Assembly: GCA_007375645.1 (NCBI GenBank) | Contig: VMER01000003.1 | Coordinates: 81,553-145,552 of the forward strand | Origin: Parcubacteria group bacterium LiPW_15 | Lineage (GTDB): Bacteria; Patescibacteriota; Minisyncoccia; UBA6257; 2-01-FULL-56-20 | Direction of reading: 5' to 3' | DNA: 64,000 nucleotides | Shown here: piece by piece, positions 6,302 through 45,317 of the stretch | How the letters are laid out: each line of letters begins with the position of its first letter | How positions within the stretch are numbered: position 1 is the stretch's first letter | Notes under the pieces: model-generated | Told to the model about the DNA's origin: nothing | The model's database searches: none | The model's input: only the letters and a program-made list of their open reading frames with translations | Program-made: the position numbers and the translations under genes

Positions 6302-6645
6302 AGCCTCAACTTTCTTAGATAGTTTAAGCCATTTGGCTTGTTTTTCAAACAAAAGAAAAGCGGCTCAGGGTTGAGCCGCCACGCCTCAGTCGTCAGTCGA
6401 AATGGAGTGCCCTGAATTCGTTGAGCTGGGCATCCAGGTCCAAGGACATGGAGTACACCTCCCATCACCCGCTGCATGTTCTTGCCGTCATATTCCGCAT
6501 ATACCTTGCGGACATCCTTCCCCGGCAGGACCGACACGGGATAGTCTTCATGATCGAAGGTGTCGCAGACCACAATCAGATGAGTCGCGCCATCCTTCTT
6601 CGCCTGATTAAGCCATCTCGCGATTGTCGTCTTGGTGGTCGCCAT
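6292..6645 (-). CDS. hypothetical protein; the 3' end of the ORF is doubtful
   Basis: Perfect SD AAGGAGGTG 5 nt upstream of the ATG at 6645. The ORF reads through two terminator-like hairpins (6333-6346, 6357-6376) and overlaps tRNA-Cys, so the true stop may lie upstream or there is a frameshift. Confidence 0.45.
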   Translation of the reverse strand: MATTKTTIARWLNQAKKDGATHLIVVCDTFDHEDYPVSVLPGKDVRKVYAEYDGKNMQRVMGGVLHVLGPGCPAQRIQGTPFRLTTEAWRLNPEPLFFCLKNKPNGLNYLRKLRLAR

Positions 6646-6730
6646 GGCCCACCTCCTTTTTGCCTTGCTACCCGCACCATAACGAATAACTTTCTATCTG
6701 TCAAATTCTTTCACAACCCTGCCGTAGCTT

Positions 6731-7036
6731 CTAATTTTCTAACTGGGGATCGTCCCCGCGAACCAGACCAAATTCCAGGCGAGGCATAGGTTTAATGTTG
6801 ATGGCGCGCAAAAGTTTGAACTGCAGGCGCCGGCGCTCTTCCTGGAGCATATCAAAAACTTCTTTGGCTTTTACTTCCGGGATAACGCTCACTTTAACTT
6901 TTGCCGTTTCAAGTTTTTCGGAGACCTCCACGGAAACAATGGTCACGAACGCGCCGAACTCCATATCGCGCATAAATATCTTCCCGAGCTCTTCGCGGAT
7001 AAGTTCACCAACTCTTAATTTTCTGAAAGTCTTCAT
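6731..7036 (-). CDS. rbfA: ribosome-binding factor A
   Basis: 101 aa with the RbfA KH-like fold signature (..RLEFGLVRGDDP..). Sits immediately downstream of infB, the conserved infB-rbfA order. Confidence 0.8.
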   Translation of the reverse strand: MKTFRKLRVGELIREELGKIFMRDMEFGAFVTIVSVEVSEKLETAKVKVSVIPEVKAKEVFDMLQEERRRLQFKLLRAINIKPMPRLEFGLVRGDDPQLEN

Positions 7037-7163
7037 CCCTCACCCTTGAAAGACTTTTTTATTCGACGATATAGATTTGAACATGTTGCTCGATATTAGA
7101 TTATGATTATGAAATGATTATAGAAAATAATTCTTATACAAGTCGGTCTTTCAGGGGTGAGGG
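7037..7163. promoter_or_regulatory. 18-bp inverted repeat (CCCTCACCCTTGAAAGAC / GTCTTTCAGGGGTGAGGG, one mismatch) enclosing a 91-nt AT-rich loop; it fills the entire infB-rbfA intergenic space
   Basis: Direct inspection. The arm adjacent to the rbfA ATG contains its SD-like GGTGAGGG. Confidence 0.55.
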
Positions 7164-7164
7164 A

Positions 7165-8615
7165 TTAGACTTCCTTCTTTTCTCTTATCAAAAGATGGTC
7201 GCCGACAAGCACTGCTATTGCGGAACTCATCAGCACTCCTCCTTCCTGGCCTTCGGGGATAGAGACCGCGTCTTGTTTCTTGGTCTGTAAATTGTTCACG
7301 CGTCCTTCGCCGACTTTCTTGCCTTCGCGCTGGATCTCCAGCTGCGTTTTATTTTTAAAAATTCCGGAAATAACTTTTCCGCCCACCAGTTGCTTTTCTA
7401 ATTTTATTTGATTGAAAACGGCTAGGACTTCCAAGTCTCCAATTATCTTTCCGGCCGCGGTTTCTTTCGATAGATCCTCCACCGCTTTTACGAGCTCATA
7501 GATAATTTCCGAAGAAAGGATCCTGGTCTCGCGCGCCTCCGCCAGATTCTTTGCGGCTCTGTCTAATTTTGTTTTATAAGCGACAATCGCCGCGTGAGAA
7601 GAGATCGCCATCTTCAAGTCTCCCTCGCCCACTTCGCCGACTCCCTGGTCTACAATTTTTACCGGCTTGTGAAGCGGCAAAGCTTTTAAAATTTCCGCGA
7701 TAGCTTCAAGAGAACCGGCATCCGACGCCTTCAGAAGCAACGGGAGCGAACCATCCTCGGGTTCAACCGCATTTATGGCTTTTTGGGCCGGACCAGTTTT
7801 TTTATAGTTCGAGGCGGCCTCCTCTCCGGAGAATAGATCTTCGCCGATCATCGGACTCTCTTCAAAACCGATTATCACCACGGGCGCGCCGGGCATTACT
7901 TCGTTCACCGTTTTTCCGGCGAAGTCTTCCATTATCTTTGCTTTTCCTTTGGCGGAAGCGGTCGCAATCTCATCCCCGTGGCGCAAAACTCCATCGCGAA
8001 TTATCGCGGTTACTTCTATCCCTCGATTTTTATTCAATTTACTTTCTAAAATAAATCCTCTGGCTGGAGCGGAATAATCGGCTTTGATCTCCGCGACTTC
8101 GGCGGCAAGCAAGATCAAATCCAAAAGTTTGTCCACATTTTCTCCGGTCTTCGCGGAAATCGGCTCAAAGCTGACATCGCCGCCGTAGCCCTCGAGGTAA
8201 ACGCCCGCGGCCATCAGATCGTTTTTGGTTTTCTCGATATCCGCGCCCGGCTTATCGATTTTGTTTATTGCCACCACAAAAGGAGTCTTGGTGTCGGCCA
8301 AAGTTTTAATAACTTCTTTGGTTTGCGGTTTCACGCCCTCTTCGGCGGCAACCACAAGAATGGCAAGGTCGGCGGCGTTGGCTCCGCGCTCGCGCATCTT
8401 TGAAAATGCTTCGTGTCCGGGAGTGTCTATAAACGTTATAAGTTTTCCGTTATGAGTTACCTCGTATGCTCCCACAGCCTGAGTGATTCCCCCGGCTTCG
8501 CGGGACGCGACAACAGTCTTTCGGATGCAGTCCAAAAGAGTGGTCTTTCCGTGATCCACGTGCCCCATTACTGCCACTATCGGCTGCCTAGGTTTTATAT
8601 CGTTGTTTTCAGCCA
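7165..8615 (-). CDS. infB: translation initiation factor IF-2 (short form lacking the long N-terminal domains)
   Basis: G-domain [27 protein letters not shown], then C-terminal beta-barrels. Start set at the ATG at 8615 ([12 protein letters not shown]..), which has a GGGAG SD; the ORF track extends to 8667. Confidence 0.9.
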
Positions 8616-8693
8616 TTTGCTCCCGAAGAATACCAAAAAGCATTGAAAATAACAACTTTTCGTGCAAAAAAAGCGGCCCTGAGGCCGCCTGCT

Positions 8694-9176
8694 CTATTTA
8701 GATAACTTCTTCTCGATAGCGTTCAGACGACGCACCGCGGACGCTTCGAATTCTGCCGCCAGCTTCTTGATCTCTTTACGAATCGCGCTCTTCATCTTTC
8801 TGTTACGAAAGTTGGAGGCAAGCTTTCCAAATGTGAACTGGCCCCAGAACCTGGCATCCAGATAGTCTTCCAAAGTGTGAATCCACTTCCGGTTAGTAAT
8901 CCAAAAGTCGCACGCATTCGGTCCATGTTTCTCGTCGCTGAACTCGAACTTGGAGTGGCCGCTGGCTTGCACCCTCACGACGCCCTTCTCATTCGTAATA
9001 ACGACTCGCTCCAGCCCCAAGGCAGAACCGGTAGCTATGATGAGACATTTGTCGGCGGGGAGCTCGAATTCAGCTTCGGTTACGAGCTTAGTCTTCAACT
9101 TCTTCAAGGTGCACCTCCCAGATCTCTGCGCTCGCTCAACTGGCGTCAATATAGCAAAGCCGAAATGGACCGACAA
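8694..9176 (-). CDS. hypothetical protein
   Basis: 160-aa ORF with no recognised family. Terminator hairpin at 8668-8690 (GCGGCCCTGAGGCCGC followed by a T-run on the minus strand). Confidence 0.4.
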   Translation of the reverse strand: MSVHFGFAILTPVERAQRSGRCTLKKLKTKLVTEAEFELPADKCLIIATGSALGLERVVITNEKGVVRVQASGHSKFEFSDEKHGPNACDFWITNRKWIHTLEDYLDARFWGQFTFGKLASNFRNRKMKSAIRKEIKKLAAEFEASAVRRLNAIEKKLSK

Positions 9177-9300
9177 GTATTGTCCAAACTATTTTTTTAA
9201 ACGCATTCCGAAGTCGCACATTTGGCACCAACTTTTTAGATAAAAAACCGCCGCTCCCTTTTGGGATGACGGCGGTTTTCTTTCGGCGAAAACGGCGGGT

Positions 9301-10191
9301 TTATAGATCTATATCTACATTAACCCCTCCGCGGATCTCTCCGTTCCTCCCGCGATCCTCACTTTTCGTGGAGGTCGCATCGTCATCATCGTCATCTCCA
9401 GAAAGATCATCATTGCCTATCTTAAGGTCAATTCTGATCTCACTTGAAAACCTCGCCTCCTGAGCGGCGCGCAACGCATCCTGGGCTAGATCAAAAGCGG
9501 CGCTGTAATCGGCGGCGGAGAATTTTACCTGCGCATCCGCAAGCAATTTTTCCGCGACCGAGATCTTCGCCTGCGCTTCGGCTTTGGTCGTAGTGCTTAC
9601 ACCTTGTTTGTCCAAAAATGCCTTGACCGAAGCGATAACATTAGAGGCCGCGTTAATTTTCCCTTCGGCGGAATTTTTTCCGCCTTCTGAATCTGCCTCT
9701 TCGCTTTTCTCATCGTCTTCGGCATCCACCCTTAATCTGGCGGCGTCCCGCACTTCCGAGTCAACATCGATCTTTTTACCTCCGTCTTTAATGCGGGCAA
9801 GGACTTCGCTTCGAACCCTCAATTTCGCTTCCAATTCTCCCGCTAAAGCAGCTGCCACTTTCGCATTGCCGCCATCTTTTATTTTCTCTATTCTGGCTTC
9901 TGCGGAATCGGCATGGACTTTAAAAGCTGTTCCAAGCTTGGTTTCCCAGTCCGTGCCCAGCCTGCTTTCCAACGCCAGCTTCGCAGCTTCATCCAGGCGA
10001 ACCCCGGCGAGATTCGAATCCCACGCGGCCCTGGCTTCGTCCGAAAATTTGAACGCCCCCGCGACTTTTTCGTTTATCCCGACTTTGACCGGATAGAGCG
10101 CGTCTCCCGGCAGAGAACCCTGTGCGGCGATGGAAGCTCCTCCACCTCCGCCCAAGATGACTATCAACGCTATTAATGCGCCTATTGGCAT
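9301..10191 (-). CDS. secreted coiled-coil protein, DUF5667-like, with an acidic C-terminus
   Basis: N-terminal signal/TM segment, LPGDALYPVK motif near the N-terminus, Ala/Lys-rich repeats, poly-Asp tract (DDDDDD). DUF5667 is a family common in CPR genomes. Confidence 0.5.
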   Translation of the reverse strand: MPIGALIALIVILGGGGGASIAAQGSLPGDALYPVKVGINEKVAGAFKFSDEARAAWDSNLAGVRLDEAAKLALESRLGTDWETKLGTAFKVHADSAEARIEKIKDGGNAKVAAALAGELEAKLRVRSEVLARIKDGGKKIDVDSEVRDAARLRVDAEDDEKSEEADSEGGKNSAEGKINAASNVIASVKAFLDKQGVSTTTKAEAQAKISVAEKLLADAQVKFSAADYSAAFDLAQDALRAAQEARFSSEIRIDLKIGNDDLSGDDDDDDATSTKSEDRGRNGEIRGGVNVDIDL

Positions 10192-10328
10192 GTTTTTTAT
10201 TATTTTTGGTTTATATGGGGACCCTTTACATAAGTATAGACGAATGGGTTTGAAATCTATTACAAATTCTGTTCGGACGTTTACACGATAAAATATCGAG
10301 ACGCGCGGCCATTTGGTATAATAGAGAC

Positions 10329-11333
10329 ATGGTAGAGTCGGATAAGGAAAAGAGGATAAGATTTCCGAGCGGAACTCAGGCGATATTCATCGACAAATGT
10401 CTTGAGGTATTAAATATCACAACGGCACGATTCGCCGAAATGACAGGCGTAAACCCTCGAACCGCAGCGGACTGGCGAAGAGGTAAATTTTTAATGTCAG
10501 CATATGCTGCAAAACTGATTAGCCTGAAAAGTGCAATTTCTATTCCGCCTGGCGCAAAGTCGGAATTGCGCTACTGGTATGTAAATAAGGGCGCAAAGAT
10601 GGGCGGGAAGGCAACATATAAAAAATACAGTCAGGTTGGCGGTAGCGCAGAAAACCGCAAAAAGCTTTGGCGGGAGTGGTGGGAAAAAGAAGGTAGGCTC
10701 AAAAGCAATCCTTTGTTTGCGCCCAAGCCGATTTACGAACCGAAAGCTAGCTCAACCCTTGCCGAATTTGTGGGCATTATGATGGGTGATGGATCCATAA
10801 CCAAATCACAAATAACGATAACCCTGCACCACACAGACGATCTGGCATATAGTAAATTCGTAACAAAACTGATTCAAAGACTGTTTCATGTGCAGCCTAG
10901 TGTCTATCACTCAGAAAAGAGTTCGGTCAACGACATAGTGGTTTCGCGAGTAGTATTGGTAAAATATTTAAATTCTCTTGGACTGCCGATTGGTAATAAA
11001 GTAAAGCAGCGATTCGATATTCCAAACTGGATTAAGACCAATAAAAAATTTTCTGTGGCATGCGTACGAGGACTCATCGACACCGATGGCTCCGTTTTTA
11101 ATCATCGATATTGGGTTCGAGGAAAAAGGTATTCCTATAAAAAATTGGACTTTGCCAGCGCATCACACCCACTGCTACACTCCGTATTCTTAATTATGAG
11201 AGATAACGGCCTAAACCCACGAATAACAAAAGATGGAAGAAAAATACGGTTGGAGAGAGTTGAGGACGTAGAAAAGTATTTCAAAACGTTCAAGCCAAGC
11301 AACGAAAAACATTTGAAAAGATACCAAAATTGA
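10329..11333 (+). mobile_element. free-standing double-motif LAGLIDADG homing endonuclease
   Basis: Two LAGLIDADG motifs (GIMMGDGSI and GLIDTDGSV) spaced about 100 aa apart, plus an about 130-aa basic N-terminal extension. No host gene or intron context was detected; it lies directly upstream of tRNA-Ser. Confidence 0.75.
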
Positions 11334-11353
11334 GTTAAGGTTTATCTGCAAAA

Positions 11354-11442
11354 GGAGGGGTCGGATAATGGTTATTCCAACGGTTTGCTAAACCGTGCTG
11401 CGTAACAGCGGCCTGTGGGTTCGAGTCCCACCCCCTCCGCCA
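11354..11442 (+). tRNA. tRNA-Ser(GCT)
   Basis: GGAGGGG-TC-GGATAATGGTTATTCC-A-ACGGT-TTGCTAA-ACCGT-GCTGCGTAACAGCGGCC-TGTGGGTTCGAGTCCCAC-CCCCTCC-G-CCA. Class II long variable arm; CCA is encoded. Confidence 0.8.
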
Positions 11443-11496
11443 GATTACCAAGTTTGAACTCAAGTAAAATAAGGCTTATTTTGCTAAAATAGAAAT

Positions 11497-12453
11497 ATGA
11501 AATTTGAAGAAAGCCCACAACCTAATACTGTAGAAAATTCAGAACCACGAAAAAATTTGCAACGCGCATTACATTTTGATGCTGTCGAGCTTACCCCCGA
11601 ACAAGATTTTCCAGTTAATATTCGTGTTCGGAAAGAACCGATTGAGGTTCTTGATGGCGACAATCTCGGTTCTAACTCTGTGGAAGTTAAATTTGAGAAT
11701 GAAGCTTTAGCTCTCATGGAGGAAGCGGAAAAATTAGCCGAACTCCCTGAAGAGGAACGCCTTGGGGCTCTGACAGAATTAGTCCGAAGTAAATTGAAAT
11801 ATCCATACCCTGATGTTATGGAAGCAGCTCAAGCAGAAAATCCTGAACTCAAAGAATGGTTTGAAAAACGCTTTGGTAAAAATCCAAGTATTGGAAACCT
11901 TTCACTCAACGACTTTTTAAGAAATGGTTATGGCGATTGTAAAATTATGGCGGCCGCATATCTTATTGCGGCTCAATCGGCAAAAATGAAAGGTATTTAC
12001 GCAAATAGTGGAACTAGTCTGAAAAATGTGGTGCGGCCGGATACTGGTCAGCCAGTTTTCAAGTCGGTAGAACTTGATAGAGATACAAATTCGGCTCATG
12101 CTTGGGTTGAAATTCAACTGTCTGATGGAAGATGGATTCCTGTTGATCCAACGACCAACATGACAGGTCTTGGAGAAATGATAGAAGTTTTTAGACAAGC
12201 TGGATATAATGTTCCTGTCGGCTTTAAGTCGCAAACTCCTCAAGAATTAGAACTTGAACGTGATGGTTCTTATTTTGCGCCCGGCGAAGCAGAAAAGGAG
12301 CTACACTTAAAATTAAAGATTGGAAGTGTAATGACATTCGGTAAGGGTTCCCAAACAAAAAGATTAAAAACGGATAAATTTTCTGGAAGCGTAGACTTAA
12401 ATCTTGCTTCAAGTACAGATTCAAAAAGCACAAATCTTGATTTTGTTGAATAA
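11497..12453 (+). CDS. transglutaminase-like (papain-fold) cysteine protease domain protein
   Basis: Cys-His-Asp triad context: GYGDCKIMAAAY .. SAHAWVEIQLSDGRWIPVDPT. About 120 aa of low-complexity N-terminus. Confidence 0.6.
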   Translation: MKFEESPQPNTVENSEPRKNLQRALHFDAVELTPEQDFPVNIRVRKEPIEVLDGDNLGSNSVEVKFENEALALMEEAEKLAELPEEERLGALTELVRSKLKYPYPDVMEAAQAENPELKEWFEKRFGKNPSIGNLSLNDFLRNGYGDCKIMAAAYLIAAQSAKMKGIYANSGTSLKNVVRPDTGQPVFKSVELDRDTNSAHAWVEIQLSDGRWIPVDPTTNMTGLGEMIEVFRQAGYNVPVGFKSQTPQELELERDGSYFAPGEAEKELHLKLKIGSVMTFGKGSQTKRLKTDKFSGSVDLNLASSTDSKSTNLDFVE

Positions 12454-12670
12454 GATATGTTCAGGCGGGCGCGATTTGATTAGAAAACATCACATTCAGA
12501 TTGAGTAATCTACCGCATTTTGTCCCTTGCATGATTTCGGCTTAGACACCTCAAACCATTCTGGGTGAATTTTGTAGATAGCCCTTAGTTTCTGTATACT
12601 TTTATCAAGATTCTCGAATTTGAGCCGTGTTTTCGGTTCAAACTTCGGGACATCGTCCCCGCCCTAAAAC

Positions 12671-12700
12671 AAAAATAGCCCACCAATGGGCTATTTTTGT
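12671..12700. terminator. bidirectional terminator between convergent genes
   Basis: AAAAATAGCCCA-CCAA-TGGGCTATTTTT. Confidence 0.7.
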
Positions 12701-12730
12701 TCGGGCGCGAGCAGTTCGGCTCCCATCCGC

Positions 12731-13408
12731 CTATGCGGACGGCCGCCTCTCCACGCTCTCATATAAATCTCCGCCACAGTTATCACAAGGTTCCCCTATC
12801 TCAAGCTTGATAACCTCGGCATTTCCAATATCTAACCCCGTAGACTTAGCGTGCTCGATCTTCCTGATATTCTTAAGAACCAAGCCTAGTAATGCGCCGT
12901 GAGATACGAGCACCACGTTTTTATGCTCATGATCCTTCCGATGATTGAGCAATGCTTTCATCGCCCTCTCCTCGACTTCTTCAAATGTTTCGCCCCCAAG
13001 CTCTTTATAGGGCCGGTCAAGAAAGCTACCGTATTTTTCATTTACTTCCGGAATATACATACCCTCCAGACTACCGCAATAAAGTTCCCGTAAAGATCTG
13101 TCGAGAATTATCTCAGCGCCGGTAGCTTTGGCGATTATCTCTGCCGTTTTTCTTGCGCGCACCAAATCAGAGCTCACGATCAAATCAATGTGCTTATCCT
13201 TCAAAAGGTTTGCAGTGGCTTCGGCTTGCTTTATGCCGGTTTCATTTAGGGGCATGTCGGTTTGTCCAAGTATGCGCTCCTCTTTGTTCCAATCGGTTTC
13301 GCCGTGCCGAACCAAAAACCAGTTTGATTTTATTTTCAAATCAGAATACTCCTTGCCACAGCCCATGCAAAAATAATTTGGCATGAACATATTGTACCCT
13401 TTATTCAA
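12731..13408 (-). CDS. histidine phosphatase family protein (phosphoglycerate-mutase-like) with flanking CxxC pairs
   Basis: RHG motif LVRHGETDWN and a downstream catalytic His (LVSHGALL). CMGCG at the N-terminus and CDNCGG at the C-terminus suggest a split zinc ribbon. Confidence 0.65.
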   Translation of the reverse strand: MNKGYNMFMPNYFCMGCGKEYSDLKIKSNWFLVRHGETDWNKEERILGQTDMPLNETGIKQAEATANLLKDKHIDLIVSSDLVRARKTAEIIAKATGAEIILDRSLRELYCGSLEGMYIPEVNEKYGSFLDRPYKELGGETFEEVEERAMKALLNHRKDHEHKNVVLVSHGALLGLVLKNIRKIEHAKSTGLDIGNAEVIKLEIGEPCDNCGGDLYESVERRPSA

Positions 13409-13458
13409 ACTTTAGCGATTCGGTAAAGATACGGCGAGCAGTTCTACCCCACCCCACG

Positions 13459-13492
13459 TTTTGCGAATCCCGTTTTGGGTATATATTTGTAG
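13459..13492 (+). promoter_or_regulatory. promoter-like repeat copy 1: TTGCGA-N15-TATATA within TTTTGCGAA..CCGTTTTGGGTATATATTTGTAG
   Basis: A 23-nt core identical to 15233-15256; sigma70-like -35/-10 spacing; 19 nt upstream of the ATG at 13511. Confidence 0.45.
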
Positions 13493-13510
13493 ATAGAAGC
13501 TTTTAGCCAA

Positions 13511-14680
13511 ATGAATTATCAAAAAAATATTTTCCGGCGATACGCCATTCACGCCTTTTTCCAACGCTTTGCCCAGTTTGTATTTTTTGGATTTGGTAGT
13601 TTACTGATATACACCAAAACGCAATCGGTCGTTTGGACAATACTTTTTGGGCTTCTGGGAACAGTCACGAATATCGGAATATTATTATTCCCGCATTGGT
13701 GGTGGAGATGGTTGGCACAAAAGAATTTACAACAAGCGATGATTGTCGGGATGTTGCTTTTTGCTGTCGCTGATTTCGGAATATATTATTTGCCGACAGA
13801 TATTCATAATTTCAGTGTTTTTCTGATGCTTCTTGCGATTCTGCACTCTTTTGGAAACCAAATTTATTGGGCTCCTTCTAATGCTATATTTTTCAATGCC
13901 CTTGGATCGCTTGATTCTCCCGGAAAATACAGCGGGATTATGTCGATCGTCGAGATGATCAGTGCTACATTGGCCGGTGTAGCTGGATTACTCTTGAGTG
14001 ATCCGGCCCGCTTTCTATATCTATGGCCGCTCGGTGGCACCGTGCTCCTTTTAAGTATTTTGCCATTATTGGGGTTACATATTTCTTTTGAGGATCACCT
14101 TTCAACCATTCAAGGATTCAAAAAACTTTCGCTTTCGGCGATTCTCGCGAATATAAATCCCGATCATCGGTTTCAGATCACCGCTATTCCGCTTCTTTTA
14201 GTCTTTCTCTTTAAATCCTTAAATGTCTCTATTTGGATTACCGGCATCACATTTCTTGCGTCCGTGTTGATATCGTATATTGCGGGAAGATATAAGGACA
14301 GTAGCCGTCCTTTTCCTTATATCATTGCAACTATCAGCTTAGGATTGATGTGGATTTTATACGCTTTTGCGAAAACCCCACTCATTTTTATCCTTCTGGG
14401 CGTTGGAGTTCAACTCGCATCGCTTATGCTTGATGTGGGACGCGAAGCTCGCCTGGGACGAGAGGTGGTAAATTCCGGCAATCCGTTAAACACTGCTTTT
14501 GCGATTGAGTGCTCCAGGGCAATTGGAGGAACAATCAGTTTTTCTGTTTTGCTTGTGGTATATCTTATTTATGGTCCAACTGCGCAATTATTTCTGGCAC
14601 TTGGAGTTATTTTTATATTACCAAGGGCACGGTATGCAATCGGGAATATAGACGGCGCGCTCCACTCGCCGCGGGCATAG
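13511..14680 (+). CDS. multi-pass membrane transporter (MFS-like)
   Basis: 389 aa with about 12 hydrophobic helices in a two-halves architecture. Composition-based call. Confidence 0.45.
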   Translation: MNYQKNIFRRYAIHAFFQRFAQFVFFGFGSLLIYTKTQSVVWTILFGLLGTVTNIGILLFPHWWWRWLAQKNLQQAMIVGMLLFAVADFGIYYLPTDIHNFSVFLMLLAILHSFGNQIYWAPSNAIFFNALGSLDSPGKYSGIMSIVEMISATLAGVAGLLLSDPARFLYLWPLGGTVLLLSILPLLGLHISFEDHLSTIQGFKKLSLSAILANINPDHRFQITAIPLLLVFLFKSLNVSIWITGITFLASVLISYIAGRYKDSSRPFPYIIATISLGLMWILYAFAKTPLIFILLGVGVQLASLMLDVGREARLGREVVNSGNPLNTAFAIECSRAIGGTISFSVLLVVYLIYGPTAQLFLALGVIFILPRARYAIGNIDGALHSPRA

Positions 14681-14691
14681 ACATAAGAAAT

Positions 14692-14726
14692 ATGGCAAGC
14701 GAAATTTTCTATACGATTCAATAAAG
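14692..14726 (+). repeat. 35-nt direct repeat copy 1 (ATGGCAAGCGAAATTTTCTATACGATTCAATAAAG)
   Basis: Perfect copy of 15621-15655. Here it lies just after the stop of the MFS-like gene and out of frame with it. Confidence 0.7.
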
Positions 14727-14945
14727 AAGTGGCGGACTACGGCGAGCACGGCCCGCCAGGTCGGCGACTTTCTGCCGTGAATCTGCCGTCAAAGAAAAAT
14801 GGGTTATAGTTCAAACATTGGAATTTACACTCCGTCTTGCTCTTGAGACACAAAGGAGTCCCAATTAATAAAAACCAAGAGCCCCAAATTATCCAGCAAT
14901 AAAAGGTCGATTGGATAATATAACTCAATTTTTATCACACTCCTT

Positions 14946-15134
14946 ATGGACAAAAATGAAGACGACAAGCTCACCCTAACCGCGGATGAGAGGTATTGGT
15001 TGGAGCGAAGCCCGCGAAGAAGGAAATGGGATGAGTGGGGCTCCCCGGTCGGATTAAGTCTTGGTTGGGCTATATTCATAGTCTCAATCGGATTCTTTCT
15101 CTACCTTCTGCACCTGGCGGGACTCCTAGGCTAG
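14946..15134 (+). CDS. small hypothetical membrane protein (62 aa)
   Basis: C-terminal TM helix, followed by a strong bidirectional terminator at 15143-15175. No clear SD. Confidence 0.3.
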   Translation: MDKNEDDKLTLTADERYWLERSPRRRKWDEWGSPVGLSLGWAIFIVSIGFFLYLLHLAGLLG

Positions 15135-15142
15135 CGGATCCT

Positions 15143-15175
15143 AAAAACCGGCTTTTATAAAAGCCGGTTTTTAGT
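15143..15175. terminator. bidirectional terminator
   Basis: AAAAACCGGCTTTT-ATA-AAAGCCGGTTTTT. Confidence 0.7.
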
Positions 15176-15222
15176 TATAAGGTTTGGGAAGCGAACTCAC
15201 CAACAAAAGCGGAATGCTCGGT

Positions 15223-15256
15223 TTTTGCGAACGCCGTTTTGGGTATATATTTGTAG
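15223..15256 (+). promoter_or_regulatory. promoter-like repeat copy 2 (TTGCGA-N15-TATATA)
   Basis: Same 23-nt core as 13470-13492; 5 nt upstream of the ATG at 15261. Confidence 0.45.
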
Positions 15257-15260
15257 GTAT

Positions 15261-15653
15261 ATGAATCGAAAAAACTGGATTGCACTTTTGGCGGCCTTAA
15301 TCGTAATCTCAGCCGGAGCAGTGGTTTATTTTGCTATCGGCAACAAAACGACACCGCCCCAAACCGTGACCGCATCAATGTGGCCGGATGTTAAGAGTTT
15401 TGATGTGGCCGATAAAACTTTCGAGGCTAAGGATTTGAACACGGGCGAAAAAATTAAGGTCTTAACTGACGCCTCTACGAAGTATTACAAAATAGTCTAC
15501 GAAGCACCCTCCCCGAGTGATTATTTTGATTTTCAGAGCCTATATTCCTTGCTTAAAAATTGGGAAGGGCCGACCTGGCGCTTCACCCTCAATGGAACCG
15601 TCCAGAATGACGGTTCCATAATGGCAAGCGAAATTTTCTATACGATTCAATAA
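15261..15653 (+). CDS. hypothetical membrane-anchored protein; its last 11 codons are the 35-nt repeat (…MASEIFYTIQ*)
   Basis: ATG at 15261 (MNRKNWIALLAALIVISAGAVVYF..). The ORF-track start at 15225 is a TTG inside the promoter repeat. Confidence 0.45.
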   Translation: MNRKNWIALLAALIVISAGAVVYFAIGNKTTPPQTVTASMWPDVKSFDVADKTFEAKDLNTGEKIKVLTDASTKYYKIVYEAPSPSDYFDFQSLYSLLKNWEGPTWRFTLNGTVQNDGSIMASEIFYTIQ

Positions 15654-15655
15654 AG
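15621..15655 (+). repeat. 35-nt direct repeat copy 2
   Basis: Identical to 14692-14726. Here it is in frame and supplies the C-terminal 10 aa and the stop codon. Confidence 0.7.
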
Positions 15656-15701
15656 GCATAGAGAGAGGTAATACCCACCCCAACTTCGCCATCCTGAATC
15701 C

Positions 15702-16186
15702 ATGCCCGACGACCCCGAAAAACACTTTCAAGTTGCCCTGGAAGCCAAACTCAAAAAGTTCGGCGTGTGGTTTAACTTTATCGAGAAACCGGAGTCCACA
15801 ATACATACCGCGGACGCGGCAGGTATAACCGGAATCGAGCTTCACCGGATCTCAAAGAATCTAATGGCCCAAACGAATGATGGGCGCTACGCGGCGCTAA
15901 TCGTGCCCGGAGATATGCGCGTGGACTACAAAGCGGCGGCCAAGCTCCTCGACGCAAAAAATATCAGCCTAGTCCCGTTCGCTGAGGCGCACAAAATAAG
16001 CGGTATCCCCCAGGCGGAACGCCATCTATCGGCTACGAGAAAAAAGTGGAAGTTATTTTGGACGAAGAGCTCACCAAATACGAAACGTTTTATTGCGGAG
16101 GAGGTTCGACCAGAATGCTCTTAGAACTAAAACGAGACGACGTCATCAAGGTGAATAACGCGAAAGTCGGAAAGATATCGCAATAA
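15702..16186 (+). pseudogene. YbaK/ProX-type aminoacyl-tRNA deacylase, frameshifted at a C5 run (16007-16011)
   Basis: The first frame gives ..IHTADAAGITGIELHRISKNLM..ALIVPGDMRVDYKAAAKLL. The conserved C-terminus (..GIPPGGTPSIGYEKKVEVILDEEL..FYCGGGSTRMLLEL..) continues in the +1 frame to the TAA at 16184-16186. Adding one C restores a full-length protein. Confidence 0.65.
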
Positions 16187-28502: not shown

Positions 28503-28532
28503 ATTAACTGCTTTGATATATCAAAGCAGTTA
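28503..28532. promoter_or_regulatory. 30-bp perfect palindrome TTAACTGCTTTGATA|TATCAAAGCAGTTAA at the 3' end of the TrpR-like gene
   Basis: Direct inspection; it shares the 22-bp core CTGCTTTGATATATCAAAGCAG with 28956-28995. Confidence 0.6.
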
Positions 28533-28946
28533 ATCAAACATCCAGATCCTGCCATATTTTGTCTTTTTGTAATGCCCGCTCCTCCTTGGCCTATTACCGG
28601 CTCCTGAGACATTTTTCTCCGCGCCGGTAACCTTCCGCTCTTGGTTCCCGAGATAGCTTTCGTAGGTTTTGCCATCCAACACTCTTTTGATACGGCTGAC
28701 TGTTTGGGAGGAAACCCAAAACTTTTTGCCTATATCCCGATAGCTATTCCCGGAAACAACAGACTCCAGCACGGCTACCCGCAACACGAGGTCATGCCGC
28801 TCTTTATCGGTCACAAACAATCGCAGAAGATCGGGGCGAGCAGAAATCATTTTCCAGCAGACAATTTCCCACTCCTTTCGCGAAGAAAAATCTTCCGGAT
28901 TCGGCAAATTGATTTTTCCGGCGCGCTGATTTCTTGTTCCTCCCAT
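28530..28946 (-). CDS. TrpR-like DNA-binding protein (YerC/YecD family)
   Basis: ERHDLVLRVAVLESVVSGNSYRDIGKKFWVSSQTVSRIKRVL matches the TrpR/YerC helix-turn-helix region. Confidence 0.6.
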   Translation of the reverse strand: MGGTRNQRAGKINLPNPEDFSSRKEWEIVCWKMISARPDLLRLFVTDKERHDLVLRVAVLESVVSGNSYRDIGKKFWVSSQTVSRIKRVLDGKTYESYLGNQERKVTGAEKNVSGAGNRPRRSGHYKKTKYGRIWMFD

Positions 28947-28955
28947 GCACTAATC

Positions 28956-28995
28956 ATACCACCACTGCTTTGATATATCAAAGCAGTGGTGGTAT
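28956..28995. promoter_or_regulatory. 40-bp perfect palindrome ATACCACCACTGCTTTGATA|TATCAAAGCAGTGGTGGTAT, 10 bp upstream of the TrpR-like start
   Basis: Direct inspection; the position implies an autoregulatory operator overlapping the promoter and ribosome-binding site. Confidence 0.6.
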
Positions 28996-40816: not shown

Positions 40817-41102
40817 AGGCCTATAATACAGCGCTTTTGCTTTTTTTGCAAGTATTTTTAAAAGATCCGCCCCCAAATACGAAAATGGAGCCCCCGTGGG
40901 GCTCCGTGTGTTGGCTCGCTGAAGGCGAGCAGAATTTGATCAGCCGTAAGGCCGATTTTGGCTAGCTATTTTGGAATCATTGGGCTGACTTAATACTAGC
41001 ATCTAACCTGTCCGGCGCAATCGGGGGGGGTGTGGACAACTTTTTTGCCTAGCTCTCTCGGGAACGCGGTTCGCTTATCCTGCGAAAGCGCCCACTGCGC
41101 TC

Positions 41103-41122
41103 CCTGCCTGCCGGCAGGCAGG
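41103..41122. repeat. palindromic repeat copy A: CCTGCCTGCC|GGCAGGCAGG, followed 3 nt later by GGCGAAGCG
   Basis: Direct inspection; the same 20-bp palindrome occurs at 45298-45317 and a degenerate copy at 57682-57711. Confidence 0.6.
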
Positions 41123-45060: not shown

Positions 45061-45065
45061 TCTTG

Positions 45066-45150
45066 TGCCCGGGGGGAGATTTGAACTCCCATGATCTTGC
45101 GATCGCTAGCTCCTAAAGCTAGTGCGTATAGCCAGTTTCGCCACCCGGGC
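45066..45150 (-). tRNA. tRNA-Leu(TAG)
   Basis: Reverse complement: GCCCGGG-TG-GCGAAACTGGCTATACGC-A-CTAGC-TTTAGGA-GCTAG-CGATCGCAAGATCATG-GGAGTTCAAATCTCC-CCCGGGC-A. Class II long variable arm. Confidence 0.8.
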
Positions 45151-45297
45151 AATATCCCACCTTGTTGTTCAATTTATAATTTACCACAGAAATGCCCGAA
45201 GGGTGGGAGGGTAAATCTGCCAACTTGCCCCGTCAAAGCGAAGCTTATTCGGGGTTTCGCCACCCCAGCACTTTGAACGGGATAAATTTGCCATTTC

Positions 45298-45317
45298 CCT
45301 GCCTGCCGGCAGGCAGG
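45298..45317. repeat. palindromic repeat copy B: CCTGCCTGCC|GGCAGGCAGG, followed 35 nt later by GGCGAAGCG
   Basis: Direct inspection; in the same orientation as copy A. Confidence 0.6.

Follow-up and report, generated by a model that had tools for sequence, protein, structure and literature searches.

A divergent transporter gene between the ends of a putative second gene B unit in a tRNA-Ser-linked insertion of Parcubacteria LiPW_15: a probable relic of recombination

The stretch of DNA analyzed here (the window) comprises 64 kb of the metagenome-assembled genome (MAG) LiPW_15, a Parcubacteria member of the Candidate Phyla Radiation (CPR), and it contains two unrelated genes that are accompanied by copies of the same two short sequences. 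Gene A encodes a transporter and gene B a small protein with a membrane helix; the copies of a 37-nucleotide (nt) block and of a 35-mer around gene A are designated P and R, those at gene B are designated P' and R', and names of the form L0xx denote related contigs (Table 1). Both pairs were located, in agreement with the original prediction of the same promoter-like 5' block and the same 3' 35-mer at two unrelated genes. The 35-mer (ATGGCAAGCGAAATTTTCTATACGATTCAATAAAG) is present in exactly two copies in the window, identical at 35/35 positions, with 0 matches expected in shuffles. The 37-nt block likewise has only two copies there, identical at 34/37 positions, the one before gene A carrying two substitutions relative to the form found in relatives, and the two pairs are the longest direct-repeat families of the window. 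All copies are in direct orientation (P to P', 1764 nt; R to R', 929 nt), and the succession of P and then R on one strand reproduces the order and orientation of gene B, their putative source. R lies 11 nt past the stop codon of gene A and in frame +2 relative to it, whereas R' is in frame with gene B, which bears out the prediction of a 35-mer that is out of frame after the first gene and forms the in-frame end of the second.

The nature of the 35-mer becomes apparent from the gene B family, which is very small (eight other clusters and two GTDB loci). The 35-mer codes for the conserved C-terminus of gene B (..GSIMASEIFYTIQ*), which is kept in all homologs with synonymous changes, and all family members end in ..GS[IV][ML]A[SND]EI[FY]Y[TQ]IQ*. 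Among seven DNA sequences of the last 11 codons, variation occurs at 11/11 third positions, three first positions, and three second positions, a pattern that argues for constraint at the protein level and not for a conserved DNA element. In the AlphaFold model of gene B (mean predicted local distance difference test score [pLDDT] of 77, with the extracellular domain mostly >80), residues 120-129 form the last beta-strand and pair with strand 106-114 (block pLDDT 86-92); the domain itself is weakly OB-fold-like, with CusF and CcmE matched at E ~1e-3, and is preceded by a single N-terminal membrane helix. Judging from this conserved and modelled C-terminal strand, R' is an integral part of gene B. 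Swapping of C-terminal tails, another of the possibilities raised at the outset, is at odds with these data, as the MASEIFYTIQ ending is native to the gene B family, is conserved in it, and lies out of the frame of gene A. An apparent case of tandem gene B paralogs in L008 was rejected, the second 130-amino acid (aa) gene there being unrelated to gene B.

Upstream of gene B, the 37-nt P' (TTTTGCGAATGCCG..GTAGGTA) recurs in identical form in 10 contigs of the closest relative lineage, in which gene B has 81% aa identity and P' is accompanied by the hairpin terminator of the small upstream gene X, whereas more distant gene B homologs keep the coding tail and have unrelated upstream sequence without P. 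This distribution points to P' as a lineage-specific promoter region of gene B with a very short leader, the start codon lying 1 nt from the block in gene B and 15 nt from it in gene A. Promoter activity of P is likewise suggested by its position after a strong terminator, by the nearby start codons, and by its perfectly conserved core. The finer description of P given in the original prediction requires correction: the gap proposed as N4 is 2 nt (TC versus CG), so that the pattern written with N4 matches nothing, and TTGCGA and TATATA, given as 15 nt apart, are separated by 13 nt (15 nt to TATATT). The -35 and -10 hexamers of a sigma-70-type promoter would be 16-18 nt apart, and a sigma-70 consensus scan makes no call in P. 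Within the block, a pair of direct half-sites (CGTTTTGCGAA and CGTTTTGGGTA; 13457-13484 and 15222-15248) is spaced by 14 nt and overlaps with the -35 and -10 regions; the pair is a candidate binding site for a regulator. Gene X has one C-terminal membrane helix and 91 homologs across Patescibacteria, and its family is found repeatedly just downstream of a tRNA-Ser. The suspicion of an engineered construct, raised by adjoining AvrII, NheI, and BamHI sites at the end of gene X (CCTAGGCTAGCGGATCC, 15125-15143), was rejected; the cluster is ascribed to chance because L002 reads GCTAGCAGATCC and TAG is the stop codon of gene X.

Gene A, for its part, is an intact gene that has a start and a stop of its own, as shown by its end-to-end alignment with homologs of ~390 aa, and it codes for a divergent transporter of the MFS type. 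Exhaustive HMMER searching yielded 38 homologs, the best of them 41% identical with residues 3-380 of ~390 aligned; 3/9 family members match Pfam MFS_1, and ~11 hydrophobic segments are recognizable. An earlier classification of gene A as an ORFan, made when a word-indexed search matched only the gene itself, was dropped upon the finding of these relatives. Public annotation starts the gene 67-80 codons late (309 or 322 aa), and the homologs support the start at 13511. The segment between P and R stands in for 361 nt of gene B, and the only gene B remnant retrieved from the island by tblastn of gene B is the tail encoded by R. The N-terminus of gene A (MNYQKN) was considered as a possible copy of that of gene B (MNRKN/MNQKN), an idea that was rejected given that it aligns with gene A's own family.

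Gene A, P, and R all reside within DNA that is peculiar to this strain. At least six related contigs (L013, L014, L016, L017, L018, and L020; ~89-95% nucleotide identity) join position 11455 directly to 14753, and the junction alignment shows their homology to the window breaking off at 11455 and starting again at 14753, the two homologous parts overlapping by 19 nt. The intervening 3.3 kb is therefore an insertion at the 3' end of tRNA-Ser, in this strain only. Relatives without it have tRNA-Ser(GCT), ~190 nt, then gene X, and then gene B, and in an outgroup at 82% identity tRNA-Ser also stands immediately before gene X. The 19-nt boundary repeats are identical at 13/19 positions with an exact core of CCGCCAG, which is compatible with either attachment (att) sites or microhomology, and the GC content of the insertion is 0.38-0.49, mostly ~0.40-0.43. 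L012, L015, and L019 carry different sequence at the same insertion point, and the motif GGTTCnAACTTCGGGACATCGnCnCCGCC, which is internal to the window's insertion, constitutes the right end of the unrelated insertion in L012 (1535-1563); the window's insertion is thus probably composite, with at least two stacked modules. No integrase is found on the insertion, the genes of which are transglutaminase-like, histidine phosphatase, and MFS-like; none is recorded, nor any other recombinase, among the called genes of window 5261-25653, and no recombinase domain is present among the scanned open reading frames (ORFs) of the relatives' insertions.

Table 1. Coordinates (window positions) and properties of the features at the locus.
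Feature	Coordinates	Strand	Description
tRNA-Ser(GCT)	11354-11442	+	ARAGORN, Rfam tRNA; 3' end is the insertion point
Left direct repeat	11437-11455	+	CCGCCAGATTACCAAGTTT; imperfect, 19 nt
Insertion	11456-14752	.	3.3 kb, strain-specific; transglutaminase-like gene, histidine phosphatase gene, P-geneA-R
Transglutaminase-core-like gene	11497-12453	+	Pfam PF01841; insertion cargo
Motif GGTTCAAACTTCGGGACATCGTCCCCGCC	12633-12662	+	Also right end of a different insertion in L012
m1	12707-12730	+	GCGAGCAGTTC...; just outside 3' end of phosphatase gene
Histidine phosphatase family gene	12731-13408	-	Pfam PF00300 (5e-51), NCBIfam; public call starts at 13384
m2	13431-13458	+	GCGAGCAGTTCTACCCCACCCCACG; apparent copy of normal post-B sequence, directly abutting P
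P	13459-13495	+	Putative second copy of gene B promoter block, now ahead of gene A
Replacement segment	13496-14691	+	Gene A and its own flank (15 nt 5', 11 nt 3')
Gene A	13511-14680	+	389 aa; divergent MFS-type transporter (predicted)
R	14692-14726	+	Probable relic of gene B's last 10 codons, stop, and 2 nt; out of frame, unstructured
m3	14727-14752	+	AAGTGGCGGACTACGGCGAGCACGGC; post-B-like; right end of insertion
Right direct repeat	14753-14771	+	CCGCCAGGTCGGCGACTTT; imperfect, 19 nt; relatives' homology resumes here
Single-copy repeat in relatives			CCGCCAGATTGGCAACTTT
Gene X	14946-15134	+	62-aa small membrane protein; ancestral neighbor downstream of tRNA-Ser
Hairpin terminator after gene X	15141-15174	+	Fold z = -4.4; conserved in relatives; between gene X and gene B's promoter
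P'	15223-15259	+	Putative native promoter block of gene B; identical 37-mer in 10 related contigs
Gene B	15261-15653	+	130 aa; N-terminal membrane helix and OB-like beta-barrel (model)
R'	15621-15655	+	Native 3' end of gene B; codes for last beta-strand (model)
m4	15656-15691	+	Post-B sequence; relatives' homology ends at 15680; CCCACCCCAACTTCGCCA resembles tRNA-Ser 3' end

The flanks outside the repeats had been described as unrelated, which holds apart from two stretches. The 28 nt before P (m2) resemble the post-B sequence of relatives: against that of L002, 10/2000 shuffles score as high, and against that of the window itself, 66/2000. Likewise, the 26 nt after R (m3) have an 11-mer, TACGGCGAGCA, in common with m2 (13430-13440 and 14738-14748), and R plus m3 align to the L002 gene B tail and post-B sequence through GCCCGCC, overlapping the CCGCC core of the right insertion boundary. 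With post-B sequence abutting a gene B promoter block, the m2-P joint has the appearance of a tail-to-head junction, as expected of a tandem or circular [P-B-R-postB] unit. A further exact 11-mer, GCGAGCAGTTC, occurs at 12707-12717 (in m1) and 13434-13444 and brackets the phosphatase gene; more generally, GCGAGCAGTTC or TACGGCGAGCA followed by a C-rich run brackets both the phosphatase gene and P-geneA-R and follows gene B (L002 631). The first 36 nt of L019, located at the position of the tRNA 3' end in L015, find their best window matches in m2 and m1 and their next-best matches in true tRNA 3' ends, and a resemblance to the tRNA-Ser 3' end is also seen in the post-B sequence of the window (7/500 shuffles). 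The 'm' repeats may have originated as att-type copies of the tRNA end that have since decayed, a reading that is suggestive rather than established. Two further candidates were set aside: a third, degenerate copy of R at 13406-13430, which is collinear with m2 and not significant alone, and, in relatives, a repeat resembling 'm' ahead of P', which is not significant.

Considered together, these observations make it quite probable that P and R are the ends of a second gene B unit, the body of which was replaced by gene A, and that the arrangement is a relic of recombination and not a portable cassette system; recombination as the origin of the arrangement is thereby agreed with the original prediction. 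A second gene B unit, consisting of promoter, gene, and ~28 nt of following sequence, would have arisen by tandem duplication or by way of a circular intermediate and would have landed in the tRNA-Ser-proximal insertion. The 361-nt body of this redundant copy would then have been overwritten by an incoming transporter gene that brought almost no flanking DNA. Variants that kept P before the new ORF would have been those expressed and retained, with R left over at the other junction as an untranslated and unstructured relic. Because gene A would occupy the place of the second unit's coding body, it is likely transcribed from the B-type promoter and is probably co-regulated with gene B. We infer that duplication preceded replacement and that R is neutral; the perfect identity of R would reflect a recent origin or, alternatively, gene conversion templated by R', and the data fit both.

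Several observations weigh against this interpretation. P misfits the sigma-70 spacing, and its role as a promoter rests on position and conservation. For illegitimate recombination, it is unusually neat that one ORF was exchanged almost exactly for another, with the promoter left in place and only 15 and 11 nt of foreign flank brought along. A single duplication accounts poorly for two features together, namely the identity of R at 35/35 positions against 34/37 for P and the sharp difference between the sequences that directly follow R and R'. In addition, the 'm' repeats also bracket the phosphatase gene, which hints at a regular, site-directed process, and the census of copies in LiPW_15 is confined to the 64-kb window. 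Together, the trimmed ORF swap, the complete identity of R, and 'm' repeats unaccompanied by an integrase leave a small probability that something more systematic is at work.

The portable cassette, the form in which the arrangement was first described, would be expected to recur with other cargo. In relatives, however, P and R occur once each per contig and always around gene B, and the proposed search of related genomes for further copies revealed none with other cargo. The P core has 0 matches among GTDB species representatives (a collection in which LiPW_15 itself is apparently not included), one match in JGI metagenomes, which is the gene B locus of L012, and 0 matches in IMG/VR; the R core also has 0 matches in IMG/VR, and a species in which gene X is followed by a DUF1428 gene has neither P nor R. 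Dispersal of the kind seen in repetitive extragenic palindromes (REP) or miniature inverted-repeat transposable elements (MITE), with many copies in varied contexts, is not observed, given two copies of each repeat in the window and one of each per relative. It is also highly improbable that the 35-mer acts as a functional 3' element, be it a terminator, an mRNA stabilizer, or a translated mini-ORF (MASEIFYTIQ). Its perfect conservation and its initial ATG would suit such a role; nevertheless, the suggested folding of its RNA gave no structure, with a minimum free energy (MFE) of 0 kcal/mol that is worse than that of shuffles (z = +1.1). Moreover, the Rfam scan returned only tRNA and chance matches and none for R, no intrinsic terminator (GC-rich hairpin and U tract) was called at R, synonymous sites vary freely among gene B genes, and R follows no other gene in relatives or in IMG/VR; the actual terminator of the locus is the hairpin after gene X. 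Even less probable is the joining of two strain variants by the assembler. The source is indeed an assembled metagenome, and samples of a similar kind harbor related strains side by side, but three assemblies are concordant wherever they overlap. Over 20 kb the window is matched without difference by an ENA contig with the name prefix k139, and an independently assembled Logan contig (SRR8863432) reproduces window 6497-14721 (8.2 kb) at 100% identity and ends 30 nt into R. The NCBI locus tags 708, 709, and 710 follow the same gene order. Taking the k values to be 31 for the Logan graph and 139 for the ENA contig, the Logan contig breaks inside R because a k=31 graph stops at a genuine 35-nt repeat, and a mis-join via repeats of 35-37 nt is implausible because these are shorter than the reads and than k=139. 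Mis-assembly, which had been named as a possible undoing of the repeats, is in view of the ENA and Logan contigs an unlikely source of them.

Two other rivals grant the repeats an active role. According to one, they serve as switches, such that recombination between P and P' would delete gene A and gene X, recombination between R and R' would delete gene X and gene B, and the population would be a mixture of transporter and gene B states. The direct orientation and the distances of the copies are in accord with this proposal, as is the perfect identity of R, which looks as if the copies interact by recombination; it is nonetheless very unlikely, considering that no deletion variants are in evidence and the three assemblies agree where they overlap, that 35-37 nt is at the lower limit for homologous recombination, and that a deletion would be irreversible. 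According to the other, which is unlikely though less so, P...R and the 'm' repeats are the ends of integrase-less modules that stack at tRNA-Ser-like sites, with gene B, gene A, and the phosphatase gene as alternative cargo. Direct 'm' repeats indeed bound three consecutive gene units (at 12707, 13434, 14742, and post-B), the likenesses of the L019 sequence to m2, m1, and tRNA 3' ends and of post-B to the tRNA-Ser 3' end would fit modules of this kind, and the differing insertions of relatives occur at exactly these two boundaries. R, on the other hand, is gene B coding sequence, conserved as peptide in distant homologs that have neither P nor 'm', and so is no generic element end; no integrase or recombinase was recorded in the called genes or the scanned ORFs mentioned above, neither the R-like stretch that precedes m2 nor, in relatives, the m-like one ahead of P' is significant, and the second copy is confined to one genome. 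The bolder version, in which the 'm' repeats (GCGAGCAG..CCCCACCC) are recombination sites and B-derived P and R the backbone of modules in a new, integron-like CPR array, is similarly improbable. The preferred reading, a second gene B unit displaced by gene A, is retained, and the arrangement is explained by known processes, namely tRNA island insertion, duplication, and in situ displacement with promoter capture.

The surroundings of the locus display additional variability. Just upstream of the tRNA-Ser hot spot, a free-standing 334-aa LAGLIDADG-like ORF (10329-11333; helix-turn-helix-like N-terminus and LAGLIDADG_3) is retained by relatives, in L014 as a 244-aa variant, and could be a source of breaks driving local variability. 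An imperfect hairpin spans the right junction of the insertion (14727-14771), its insertion-side arm being AAGTGGCGGAC..GCGAGC and its host-side arm GCCCGCC..GTCGGCGACTT; folding of the 101-nt region gives z = -2.3, and the hairpin is without a U tract. In the relatives L002 (624-4200) and L012 (2480-5300), a 3.5-kb insertion is present right after post-B (corresponding to window 15680/15685) and carries two genes, one LexA/S24-like and the other encoding a ThsB-type TIR, that may serve in anti-phage defense; the window instead has a YbaK/tRNA-editing-domain gene (15702-16124), which L002 does not contain. Elsewhere in the window, a perfect 24-nt palindrome, ACTGCTTTGATATATCAAAGCAGT, occurs twice (28507-28530 and 28964-28987), flanking a 138-aa ORF (28530-28946, minus strand), and an exact 22-nt GC-rich palindromic repeat, TCCCTGCCTGCCGGCAGGCAGG, is found at 41101-41122 and 45296-45317, 4.2 kb apart, the second copy being near tRNA-Leu (45065-45150).

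Comparison with known systems places the locus closest to processes that are individually familiar. Gene displacement in situ, a concept reportedly due to Omelchenko et al. in 2003, resembles the present case in that an unrelated gene takes over a resident's expression context, with capture of its promoter, and remnants of the displaced gene remain. Here, however, the displaced gene is intact ~0.9 kb away and it is a redundant duplicate that was overwritten, while the event took place inside a tRNA-linked insertion and the replacement was trimmed almost exactly to the ORF. With tRNA-associated genomic islands, the insertion shares a site at a tRNA 3' end, imperfect direct repeats, absence from close relatives, cargo of mixed function, and signs of tandem accretion; it differs in being only 3.3 kb long, in having no integrase on the island or nearby, and in an exact repeat core of 7 nt, for which microhomology-mediated joining is an equally good mechanism. 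The likeness to integron gene cassettes, in which different ORFs lie in direct orientation between a common 5' promoter and a 3' element, is superficial, as there is no IntI gene (no recombinase domain in neighboring genes), only two units exist, and R is gene B coding sequence with no attC-like imperfect palindrome or fold (MFE 0). In the minimal mobile elements of Neisseria, alternative cargo is exchanged between conserved flanks by homologous recombination. Those elements also have short conserved flanks around unrelated cargo, but they are alternative alleles at one locus across strains, whereas here both versions lie side by side in one genome, and in all relatives the flanks enclose gene B alone.

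These comparisons advise caution, as short perfect repeats common to unrelated genes can be gene fragments and not regulatory or mobile modules. A new class of mechanism would be at hand only if the idea of 'm'-repeat modules holds; otherwise, the locus is a tidy CPR example and not a new kind of element. As such an example, it would illustrate how an acquired transporter may be wired into a tiny CPR genome, namely within the promoter context left by the duplicate of a resident gene, at a hot spot next to a tRNA gene where related strains vary.

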